Source: Neisseria lactamica (GTDB taxonomy: Bacteria; Pseudomonadota; Gammaproteobacteria; Burkholderiales; Neisseriaceae). Taken from it: 32,000 nucleotides of DNA. A program made the position numbers and the translations under genes. This document shows, one piece after another, positions 5,733 through 6,966 of this stretch (positions are counted from its first letter, which is position 1; every line of letters begins with the position of its first letter). Under the pieces are notes generated by a model. That model worked only from the letters and a program-made list of their open reading frames with translations. It did no database searches and was not told the DNA's origin. Where the stretch lies: positions 1,426,037-1,458,036 of the forward strand of contig NZ_LR590477.1 in NCBI RefSeq assembly GCF_901482445.1, read 5' to 3'.

Positions 5733-5922
5733 CTTGTATATTGGAATCACCGTATCATAGCAACAAACCGCCCGGCCGCCACCCGCGCCCACCCAAGGCA
5801 CACAACCGTTGCGCAGCTCAGGGAGCGGCAGGGCAACCCATCGACACAACCGGACAGTTGCCGGACAACACAACCGAATGCAAGGCAGGTTGATGATGAG
5901 TACCCGATACCATTACGCAGGC

Positions 5923-6024
5923 ATAGTGAATTAACAAAAACCAGTACAGCGTTGGCTCGCCTTGCCGTACTATTTGTACTGTCTGCGGCTCGCCGCCTTG
6001 TCCTGATTTTTGTTAATTCACTAT
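5923..6024. mobile_element. Correia-type MITE (short form, about 100 bp) nested in the 5' end of the IS recombinase gene
   Basis: Perfect 18-bp terminal inverted repeats: atagtgaattaacaaaaa (5923-5940) and tttttgttaattcactat (6007-6024). The interior ccagtacagcgttggctcgccttgccgtactatttgtactgtctgcggctcgccgccttgtcctg closely matches the short Correia element as I remember it. The right end has a TA flank. Confidence 0.75.
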
Positions 6025-6966
6025 ATCGACATCGCCAAACGAAACTTCGTCATCGCCGTTTCGTCTTTGTCTAAAACCAAAACCGAAACCAACAACCCAA
6101 AAGGTATCGCCCATACTGTCGAATACCTTAAAAAGCACAACGTCGCCCTCGTCGTGACGGAAAGCACCGGCGGTCTCGAAATCCCCGCCGCCAAAGCCAT
6201 CCGCCGGGCAGGCATAGCCGTGATTATCGCCAACCCGCGTCAGACGCATCAGTTTGCCCAGTCGCAGCCGCTGACCAAAACCGATGCCAAAGATGCCAAA
6301 ATGCCCGCCTTCTTCGCGCAGATGATGATGCAGAAAGAAGGTTGGCAAACCATGCCCTACCAACCGCCCACCGAAGCGGAAGAAGTGTTGGAAGCCTTGG
6401 TCAACCGCCGCAACCAACCGGTGGATATGCGGACTGCCGAGAAAAACCGTCTGCATCAGGTTCACGAAACGCAAGTCGGAAGCGTCAAACAACTGATTGC
6501 CCATTTTGACCGGCTGATTGGCGAATCGGACAAACAAATCGACGACCACACCCACACGCATTTTGACGGCAAAGCCCAAGTGGCAGAGCAAATCAAAGGC
6601 ATCGGTTCGATAACGACGGCTACGCTGATGGCGATGCTGCCTGAGTTGGGGCGGCTGAGCCACAAACGGATAGCGGGTTTGATCGGCATTGCCCCGCACC
6701 CGAGGGAGAGCGGGGAAACCAAATTCAAAAGCCGCTGCTTCGGCGGAAGGTCTGCGGTGCGTAAGGCGCTGTATATGGCTGCCGTGGCAGCGGCACGTTT
6801 TGAACCGCTTATTCGGGATTTCTACCAACGCCTGCTGTCCGAGGGTAAGCCGTATAAGGTTGCCGTTACGGCATGTATGCGCAAACTGCTGACGATATTG
6901 AATGCCCGGATACGTGATTATTTTGCCGAAAACGATACCGCCGAAAACGATATCCGGACGGCTTGA
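6010..6966 (+). CDS. IS110-family DEDD recombinase/transposase. The ORF as drawn starts at a TTG inside the Correia repeat. The ancestral start is probably the ATG at 5893, now cut off by the MITE.
   Basis: IDIAK (first catalytic D), ESTGG and KTDAKDA motifs. C-terminal IS116/IS110/IS902-type domain (IKGIGSITTATLMAMLPELG...IAPHPRESG...RKALYMAAVAA...). Removing 5923-6024 joins MMSTRYHYAG to IDIAK in frame. Confidence 0.85.
   Translation: MLIHYIDIAKRNFVIAVSSLSKTKTETNNPKGIAHTVEYLKKHNVALVVTESTGGLEIPAAKAIRRAGIAVIIANPRQTHQFAQSQPLTKTDAKDAKMPAFFAQMMMQKEGWQTMPYQPPTEAEEVLEALVNRRNQPVDMRTAEKNRLHQVHETQVGSVKQLIAHFDRLIGESDKQIDDHTHTHFDGKAQVAEQIKGIGSITTATLMAMLPELGRLSHKRIAGLIGIAPHPRESGETKFKSRCFGGRSAVRKALYMAAVAAARFEPLIRDFYQRLLSEGKPYKVAVTACMRKLLTILNARIRDYFAENDTAENDIRTA

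Follow-up and report, generated by a model that had tools for sequence, protein, structure and literature searches.

The stretch of DNA analysed here, referred to as the window, comprises 32,000 nucleotides (nt) of Neisseria lactamica (assembly GCF_901482445.1, contig NZ_LR590477.1, positions 1,426,037 to 1,458,036 of the forward strand). It contains three copies of an ISNme5-type insertion sequence (IS) of the IS110 family, each 1279 bp long and each carrying a short Correia element, a transposable element of the miniature inverted-repeat kind (MITE), nested within its recombinase gene. Copy 1 occupies 5735..7013 on the plus strand. Copy 2 lies at 9382..10660, also on the plus strand, between truA and opa (Correia 9569-9672; recombinase open reading frame (ORF) 9657-10613), and copy 3 lies at 21478..22756 on the minus strand between a filamentous prophage and thiC (Correia 22466-22569; ORF 21525-22481, minus strand). 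The three copies are 100% identical over all 1279 positions compared. An earlier, sequence-only reading of this DNA had proposed that a MITE interrupts the recombinase at codons 10/11 in all three, and the same 102-bp insert is indeed found at 5923-6024, 9570-9671, and 22467-22568. A fourth copy with the same coding sequence is located outside the window between ispH/lspA and carA of the same genome (L059), and the exact 318-aa protein is also encoded in GCA_000741965.1 and GCA_000173995.1 (N. lactamica ATCC 23970, the strain from which the window comes).

The ends of the IS are alike in all copies. The left junction reads …GCCCACC-CT|TGTATATT… and the right junction …ACAGTTG-CT|AC…, with a CT core at both, no terminal inverted repeats of the IS itself, and no target duplication. 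Ends of this type recur in more than 40 related copies, the right end being conserved across more than 40 independent ones. The right non-coding end of copy 1 (6967..7013, plus strand) terminates in …AAATACAGTTG-CT. On its left, the target of copy 1 (5715..5734, plus strand) is a palindrome resembling repetitive extragenic palindromic (REP) sequences, GGTGGGCTGAAGCCCACC, plus the CT core. The target context is read as GAAGCCCACC-CT-ACGG, also written GCTGAAGCCCACC-CT-ACGGCTCGC, and the target repeat as GGTGGGCT(GA/TC)AGCCCACC followed by CTAC. There are 8-10 such repeats in the window, counted as 8 palindromes or as 10 AGCCCACCCTAC sites against a chance expectation of ~0.07, and several of them are unoccupied. 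They are found at 1070-2266, 5562-5595, 5715-5732, 7016-7027, 9362-9379, and 22778-22799, clustering on either side of pilC (2381-5425), with one free site directly to the right of copy 1. In GCA_000741965.1 (L085), gene calling breaks copies 1 and 2 into fragments (81 + 128 aa and 221 aa, respectively); this is probably a repeat-collapse or frameshift error in an older scaffold, although it could be real heterogeneity between stocks.

Within copy 1, the native recombinase frame ATG ATG AGT ACC CGA TAC CAT TAC GCA GGC (ATGATGAGTACCCGATACCATTACGCAGGC) enters ATA GTG AAT TAA, and its product is MMSTRYHYAGIVN*, with a length of 13 codons (ORF 5809-5934). This leader ORF with the orphaned native start (5893..5934, plus strand) has a Shine-Dalgarno-like AAGGCAGG upstream, and its TAA at 5932-5934 is located in the left Correia repeat; the native start codon and ten codons are thereby severed from the remainder of the gene. 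The recombinase ORF as present (6010..6966, plus strand; 318 aa, MLIHYIDIAK…) begins at a TTG that directly follows an in-frame TGA at 6004-6006 and is the start of the only long ORF. Since this TTG lies within the right terminal inverted repeat (TIR) of the Correia, the Correia encodes the first five codons (MLIHY). The codon for the first catalytic Asp follows at 6028-6030. The stop after 13 codons and the restart at TTG 6010, both described in the sequence-only reading, are seen in the ORF list, and the remaining facts stated in that reading hold as well.

When the 102 bp are deleted, the match of the protein to Pfam PF01548 begins at profile position 1, and PF02371 is matched as well (E-values of 1.3e-19 and 1.5e-18). 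The NCBIfam profile NF033542 ("IS110 family RNA-guided transposase") scores 209-216 bits with a cut-off of 140, and the match begins at position 1 in the reconstructed protein and at position 4 in the TTG-start ORF. The catalytic residues are kept and align with D11, E60, D102, D105, and S241 of IS621. The N terminus typical of the family, with at least six residues followed by G-[IV]-D, is absent in the present ORF and present in the reconstructed one. Taken as a whole, the IS still belongs to the IS110 family, with the gene being a damaged or remodelled version. NCBI annotates such TTG-start ORFs as intact IS110 or ISNme5-family transposases.

The insert itself is a 100-bp short Correia plus a TA duplication, placed between recombinase codons 10 and 11. 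The nested Correia element (Correia repeat enclosed element (CREE), short class; no strand assigned) spans 5922..6025, that is, 104 bp including both target copies. Correia proper covers 5924-6023, the right TA 6024-6025, and the left target copy, degenerated to CA, 5922-5923. The TIRs at 5923-5948 and 5999-6024 are 26 nt long and 92% complementary, with the outer 18 nt perfect. Searching the window for the canonical end TATAGTGGATTAACAAAAA with up to three mismatches gives six matches, all of which are ends of the three inserts and which fit with 1-2 mismatches; none is expected by chance (100 shuffles). The start expected of a Correia TIR of 26-27 bp, (TA)TAGTGGATTAA with the AACAAAAA or AAATTTAAA variant, is found at both ends. 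As both are of the AACAAAAA type, the window Correia has symmetrical ends. Its right end agrees with the published Correia sequence TATAGTGGATTAACAAAAATCAGGACAA at 27/28 positions, and of the core features of these elements (one end of the CCGGTACGG type, the other TCAGGACAA), the insert contains TCAGGACAAGG on the reverse strand as well as CCAGTACAG. Independent Correia copies in loci of N. meningitidis, N. polysaccharea, and N. viridiae can be aligned with the whole insert, which differs from them in length by lacking only a 50-bp central block. The perfect 18-bp TIRs and Correia-like interior reported earlier thus belong to a genuine short-class CREE. With both TAs counted, the window element is 104 bp long and that of N. 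meningitidis 155 bp, in line with the described size classes of 104-108 and 153-157 bp; these classes and the end-symmetry rule are given in PMC2649163. The binding site of integration host factor (IHF), CTTCAGCACCTTA, is present in the nested long form of N. meningitidis (…TAAGGTGCTGAAG…) and missing from the short Correia of the window, as expected for that class.

The history of this insertion can be followed in relatives of the IS. A species survey in which one genome per species was scanned gave 57 loci, and a protein search gave many MITE-free relatives with ~91% identity that start MMSTQYNYAGIDIAKRNF… / MMSTQYNYAGIDIAK; a single 90%-identity cluster of such relatives has 4075 members. 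Their GG(C/T)|ATC site is empty, and the protein sequence across it is MMST(Q/R)Y(N/H)YAGIDIAK, which is the ancestral N terminus that the sequence-only reading had predicted from the window and for which it had suggested searching other Neisseria. The empty site is seen in more than 20 of the 57 loci, in commensal species including Neisseria sp. CP9, N. flavescens, N. uirgultaei, N. sicca, Eikenella halliae, and Kingella pumchi; herein, IS positions 1-188 abut 291 as …TACGCAGG(C/T)|ATCGACATC. With MITE-free copies existing, the refuting check named in the sequence-only reading turns out in favour of that reading. In the ISNme5 copies of N. meningitidis, the same TA is occupied by a full-length Correia of 153 bp that is likewise oriented, with a perfect duplication, GG-TA-[TAGTG…CACTA]-TA-TCGAC (GGT|ATAGTG…CACTAT|ATC). 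The closest MITE-free relative, in N. uirgultaei (L004), has an empty site, GGTATCGAC, that reads GGT ATC and hence offers a TA target. The proposed duplication of TA within GGT|ATC, followed by a T>C change in the left copy, is borne out in this way: it is intact in N. meningitidis, unoccupied in L004, and degenerated to CA on the left side in the window.

In a neighbour-joining tree, 12/12 distinct Correia-bearing coding sequences group in a single clade that has L004 as its sister. Rare variants are common to the short form of N. lactamica and the long form of N. meningitidis, namely GTGAATTAA at both ends and GCGGC-TCGCCGCC, which are absent from the independent Correia copies of N. meningitidis, N. 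viridiae, and N. polysaccharea in the same alignment; moreover, their right-hand 49 nt are identical. In N. gonorrhoeae (L040), a Correia with the same rare variants adjoins an IS fragment, likely a remnant of the Correia-bearing lineage as judged by these variants. The simplest history suggested by the alignment and the tree is that one old TA-duplicating Correia insertion founded the ISNme5 lineage of both N. lactamica and N. meningitidis, and that the N. lactamica branch then lost 50 bp internally. With the long and short forms descending from one insertion, the 50-bp-deleted short class can arise in place. That the insertion defines the whole ISNme5 lineage of these two species, and not just three copies, goes beyond what the sequence-only reading had claimed. 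One could instead suppose that the TA is a hot spot that received independent Correia insertions in different lineages, as the N. lactamica form is short and the N. meningitidis form long, their left-repeat variants differ (AACAAAAA versus AAATCTAAA), and a second, independent Correia insertion occurred elsewhere in the same IS family (L015). The identical site and orientation, the rare variants common to both ends and core, the identical right-hand 49 nt, and the monophyly of the recombinase sequences make this hardly credible.

Several other nested or rearranged copies were encountered in the survey. In Neisseria sp. CP9 (L015:2424-2532), a short Correia is located in the 3′ end of the recombinase gene, equivalent to approximately position 6913 of the window, with a clean TA duplication (GAT-TA-TAGTGG…CCACTA-TA-TTTTGCC); codons 10/11 of this copy are free of Correia. 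This insertion being independent, the same IS has been struck by Correia at least twice. Two N. meningitidis loci on the dnaK side (L072:1360-1520 and L075:1360-1520) carry a chimeric nested Correia. Its right half is of the nested type, whereas on the left a canonical TATAGTGGATGAAC… repeat adjoins DNA from outside the IS. The left end of the IS with the bridge RNA (described below) is gone, and dnaK replaces purH on the left. It appears that recombination between Correia copies removed the head of the IS and rearranged the locus. In an uncultured Neisseria metagenome-assembled genome, CAKAEP01 (L018, L024, L032, and L041), MITE-free copies are located inside copies of the same IS, at …CGC|CT or …GCC|CT sites in the recombinase gene; this nesting could be self-targeting off-target insertion or a repeat assembly artefact.

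The left non-coding end of the IS (5735..5892, plus strand; 158 nt to the ATG) is predicted to encode a bridge RNA, as judged by guide covariation and a consensus fold. Four putative guides are located here, all on the plus strand. The left target guide (LTG) GCCCACCC at 5787-5794 has the same sequence as the first core base together with the 7 nt to its left. The right target guide (RTG) GCGCAG at 5811-5816 follows the pattern GCG(T/C)AG, complementary to CT+AC(GC) on the right. The left donor guide (LDG) ACAGTTGC at 5854-5861 has the same sequence as the right end of the IS, and the right donor guide (RDG) ATGCAAG at 5878-5884 is complementary to the left-end CT+TGTAT with one G·T pair. In IS621, LTG and LDG are identical to the top strand, and RTG and RDG are complementary to it (PMC11208160); the window arrangement agrees with these strand rules for LTG, LDG, RDG, and RTG. 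The 7-nt left target guide GCCCACC equals the flank left of the CT core at every copy in the N. lactamica genome. In relatives that reside in other palindromic repeats, the guide 7-mer follows the target (ATCCGAC, CCCAACC, ACACACC), and the agreement between guide and flank over 18 distinct pairs is reached by 2/10,000 shuffles (re-pairings).

The consensus fold of the left end consists of two stem-loop modules with internal loops; since the sequences are ~90% alike, compensatory pair changes are not visible in it. A single-sequence fold of the left end is not better than shuffles (z = +0.8), and an Rfam scan of 5500-7200 at a permissive threshold returned no bridge-RNA or Correia family, only weak chance matches in a downstream terminator-like region. 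The structure is thus read from the alignment together with the guide matches. As the Correia begins ~25-30 nt downstream of the last bridge-RNA stem, the bridge RNA is untouched by it. From its guides, the host IS is a bridge-RNA-guided IS110 element with a guide RNA encoded in its left end (LE), a second point that the sequence-only reading did not contain. A putative −10 box, TATCAT, is located at 5753-5758 (plus strand) and is known from sequence only; its −35 counterpart TTGCTT arises solely across the junction of right end (RE) and LE in a circle. An excised circle would join TTGCT|T to the TATCAT box 17 nt away, giving a putative promoter that fits the family description of a promoter rebuilt across the RE-LE junction (PMC11208160). 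The predicted junction is …ACAGTTGCTTGTATATT…, also written …AATACAGTTG-CT-TGTATATTGG…; neither an RE-LE circle nor a tandem junction was found among 87 loci examined. Separately, 29 metagenome matches to the junction 18-mer were set aside as chance, since they are without any IS homology.

The putative RTG differs between lineages: N. lactamica has GCGCAG, the copies of N. meningitidis have GCGTAG, and of the other relatives examined most have GCGTAG too and some GAGTAG. The U>C of the window RTG faces the invariant target A right of the core and is to be counted with the points gathered further below that weigh against a self-mobilising element. The sub-lineage with this mismatch is nevertheless the one with four identical copies. 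Either the RTG position is tolerant, or the guide assignment is off by a register.

The composite of IS and Correia is found at no fewer than six distinct sites, four in the N. lactamica genome and at least two in N. meningitidis. The latter are the purH-priA locus and a cytochrome b561 gene that is split by a Correia-bearing copy. The left flank agrees with the composite's own guide at 7/7 positions at the N. lactamica sites and at purH and at 6/8 at cytochrome b561. The right flanks differ directly after AC and thus provide no homology for recombination on that side. As the guide matches all flanks in the genome, and as guide and target change together in relatives, the composite would have transposed after the insertion; that it moved after Correia had arrived is, from these flanks, most likely. 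Among the scenarios of the sequence-only reading, multiplication of the composite after arrival of the MITE is therefore the one supported by the distinct sites, the guide matches, and the tree.

Spread by recombination, another of these scenarios, would mean that no transposition took place after the insertion and that the Correia allele passed among resident IS copies by conversion, recombination, or transformation. Neisseria is naturally transformable, and recombination between Correia copies has visibly reshaped L072 and L075. The complete identity of the three window copies is what homogenisation predicts, and it could be partly due to gene conversion even if the composite moved. N. viridiae contains a 5′-truncated copy with a right flank similar to that of copy 2 over ~20 nt, and IS remnants are present near thiC in N. 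viridiae and N. polysaccharea, so that some of the sites may be old or hot spots; these remnants, like the possible conversion, speak against self-mobilisation as well. Conversion would, however, be needed at all of the six or more sites in two species, and among the 57 loci, with one genome per species, no MITE-free copy with the GCCCACC guide was found. Furthermore, the cytochrome b561 insertion is a Correia-bearing copy at a non-repeat site, and the guide that gives 7/7 matches at the N. lactamica sites and purH is that of the Correia clade itself. Spread of the allele alone is thus very unlikely. Strains with an empty site beside truA were also sought, and an exact-protein look-up gave the same strain only.

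The condition of the recombinase can be judged from its substitutions. Within the Correia clade, parsimony counts give 52.5 nonsynonymous to 34.5 synonymous changes (ω ~0.45, below neutrality with p = 0.0003), and segregating sites give 41:23 (p = 0.017). Constraint on the recombinase is, by these counts, relaxed but not absent. The ORF is open in 12/12 distinct Correia-bearing sequences, which were selected as full-length proteins. No helper with an MMST start is present among the N. meningitidis cluster members listed (~15 per cluster); the proteins listed have an MLI(H/R)Y start, are 5′-truncated, or are frameshifted. The IS110 recombinase of the prophage in the window (20353-21315) was considered as a helper as well and is unlikely to be one, being only 28% identical.

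The preferred reading is that the composite is an attenuated but still autonomous, self-mobilising IS, with a probability of roughly 0.55. According to this reading, a transcript from the IS promoter would contain first the bridge RNA, followed by the native ribosome-binding site with its ATGs, the 13-codon leader, the Correia hairpin, and the recombinase frame. The TTG of the right Correia repeat would still give low-level synthesis of the recombinase, as MLIHY-IDIAK…. In the predicted stem, the leader UAA (5932-5934) pairs with 6013-6015 and the TTG (6010-6012) with 5935-5937, so that a ribosome finishing the leader would free the TTG. Exposure of the TTG would be limited to two cases, melting of the left Correia arm by a leader-translating ribosome and cutting of the symmetrical hairpin by RNase III. 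Either route would give a trickle of N-terminally rebuilt enzyme. Hopping of the ribosome as in T4 gene 60 was rejected since there is no in-frame matching pair of take-off and landing codons.

A considerable number of observations weigh against autonomy. No Shine-Dalgarno sequence precedes TTG 6010, the sequence-only reading having already noted no obvious one. The TTG resides within a very stable predicted Correia hairpin that dominates the transcript fold (minimum free energy of the region −61 kcal/mol, z = −4.2). A scan of 5650-7100 for consensus σ70-like promoters gave no sites. By eye, checking for Snyder-type and Black-type promoters, the left Correia repeat offers a −10 CATAGT with a poor −35, and the right a Black-type candidate TTGTCC-18 nt-TATATC that lacks the final T. 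The latter putative promoter would start downstream of the TTG and hence be unable to serve the full ORF, and neither the scan nor inspection revealed a promoter within the Correia that gives a start between the left arm and the TTG. The protein itself is altered: the NF033542 score falls from 234 bits in an intact relative (P0003) to 209 in the TTG-start ORF of the window. The Gly at −2 from the catalytic Asp is present in 106/106 genuine homologues without Correia, Tyr being found only in the Correia lineage, and 4 residues precede the Gly position here, compared with at least six in nearly all other homologues examined. dN/dS is ~0.45 in the Correia clade versus 0.20 in the MITE-free relatives (Fisher p = 0.0013), and the stem branch that leads to the clade has 9 nonsynonymous versus 2 synonymous changes, including M>T beside the catalytic Glu and four changes to Pro. 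Finally, both the recombinase and the bridge RNA of IS621 function in trans (PMC11208160), so that a helper would suffice.

The nonsynonymous changes on the stem branch have a spectrum of their own: 9/9 are A:T>G:C transitions, for example at window positions 6154, 6199, 6265, 6301, 6352, and 6415. Instead of ordinary decay, biased conversion or a mutator episode might underlie so unusual a spectrum.

Many of these observations would fit a non-autonomous composite, in which Correia killed the recombinase and the element contributes its own bridge RNA and ends, with recombinase delivered in trans by an intact ISNme5-like copy. That copy would reside either in the same cell or in an earlier host, and transformation would then have handed on the alleles. 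The raised dN/dS, the burst of radical changes on the stem branch, the loss of the invariant Gly, the shortened N terminus, and a TTG that lacks a Shine-Dalgarno sequence and is buried in a predicted hairpin are all in line with a dead gene. Supply of protein and RNA in trans works for IS621 (PMC11208160), and intact relatives (~91% identity) are frequent among the commensal Neisseria with which these species exchange DNA. Set against this are a dN/dS that is still significantly below 1, the lack of an intact copy both in the window and among the N. meningitidis cluster members listed, and the frame open in 12/12 sequences, albeit ones selected as full-length proteins. Weighing both sides, loss of the recombinase appears somewhat unlikely.

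A third possibility is that the hairpin has been co-opted, with Correia being a regulatory module of the IS and a selected copy-number brake. Herein, an RNase III cut would free the bridge RNA from the mRNA, and unwinding driven by the leader would gate the synthesis of recombinase. The geometry would suit such a function, as the hairpin begins ~25-30 nt after the last bridge-RNA stem, the leader stop codon is directly opposite the TTG in the predicted stem, and the arrangement is kept across species. The amplified N. lactamica form is also symmetrical, a class reported to be cleavable (PMC2649163), and has lost the IHF site, whereas the low-copy N. meningitidis form is asymmetrical and has that site. 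The comparison, however, involves one amplified and one non-amplified lineage, the persistence of the insert is equally explained by the absence of a mechanism for precise excision, and the protein changes resemble decay rather than adaptation. Co-option is hence regarded as improbable. If it were true, transposition would be conditional, and the short symmetrical form would permit bursts such as the one that gave at least four identical copies here. If it were true for IS1106 too, capture of Correia at transposase 5′ ends would be a recurrent taming of Neisseria ISs.

Other features of the window comprise a filamentous (Nf/MDA-like) prophage at 16234-21315, which is adjoined by IS copy 3. It encodes a Rep_trans+TspB fusion ORF (16234-18078), Zot (18379-19491), and the IS110-family recombinase at 20353-21315 (320 aa). 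Families of direct repeats of ~109-130 nt with 62-94% identity occupy intergenic regions around pilC, opa, and elsewhere, for example at 1427-1535, 1914-2022, and 2073-2181, and at 10731-10860 and 28074-28203. These are probably neisserial intergenic mosaic (RS/NIME-type) units; loci from N. meningitidis and N. viridiae have similar units on the flanks of the IS.

The consequences of this arrangement concern both annotation and mechanism. The "intact" ISNme5/IS110 transposases in databases from N. meningitidis and N. lactamica are MITE-interrupted genes with the first five codons being Correia, which matters for IS annotation and for MITE censuses that score Correia hits as "ISNme5". The lineage is a natural test of how far a bridge recombinase can be deprived of its N terminus, including the invariant Gly by the catalytic Asp, with the element still spreading; this bears on the engineering of such enzymes. 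It also provides a set of close natural bridge RNAs, in which the 7-nt left guide appears reprogrammed to different REP-like repeats across Neisseria.

Much of the background was described before. Correia insertions in genes and control regions are known, as are effects through the hairpin, RNase III, IHF, and promoters. Bridge RNAs have been described since 2024 (PMC11208160), and ISNme5 is already catalogued. The assignment of the window IS to ISNme5 is based on NCBI protein names and on a MITE census, in which a large share of the hits to "known" MITEs fall on the ISNme5 entry of ISfinder, with IS1106 being hit as well. Such hits imply that the ISfinder reference itself may contain Correia. 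A literature search revealed no paper describing Correia nested in ISNme5.

Compared with ISNme5 of N. meningitidis, the window element is closely similar: proteins of the former, named "IS110-like element ISNme5 family transposase" by NCBI, start MLI(H/R)YIDIAK and are 92-95% identical to the window ORF. Differences are found in the Correia, which is of the 153-bp long form there and of the 102-bp short, symmetrical form without an IHF site in the window, and in the recombinase, which differs by ~7% at the amino acid level. IS621 (PDB 8WT6) and ISCro4 (9T56) have the same two-domain protein (E = 8e-33 to IS621) with aligned catalytic residues, and both resemble the window element in their CT core, REP-like palindromic target, LE-encoded RNA, and strandedness of the guides. 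IS621 is nonetheless a distant match, with a 177-nt RNA as opposed to an LE of 158 nt to the ATG in the window, and the interruption by a MITE, through which the N terminus of the window recombinase is rebuilt from MITE sequence, sets the window element apart. With Correia (CREE/nemis) elements in general, for example the one upstream of mtrCDE in N. meningitidis, the nested element has in common the TA duplication, the 26-nt TIRs, the size classes, a hairpin that would be co-transcribed as a potential RNase III substrate, and a long form with an IHF site. In contrast to these, it resides inside the coding sequence of another mobile element rather than in an intergenic control region, supplies a start codon and the first five codons, and rides as a passenger of the IS. 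IS1106, by comparison, belongs to the IS5 family and encodes a DDE transposase. High similarity of Correia to the N-terminal part of its transposase gene has been reported (PMC3898611, PMC11602168), a similarity that was read earlier as IS1106 mobilising Correia and not as nesting; IS1106 may be a further case of a Neisseria IS in which the transposase gene carries Correia at its 5′ end. Set beside these systems, the window element does not represent a new kind. There appears to be no record of the whole ISNme5 lineage of N. meningitidis and N. lactamica being a Correia-in-IS composite, with a Correia-coded transposase start and continued bridge-RNA-guided transposition.

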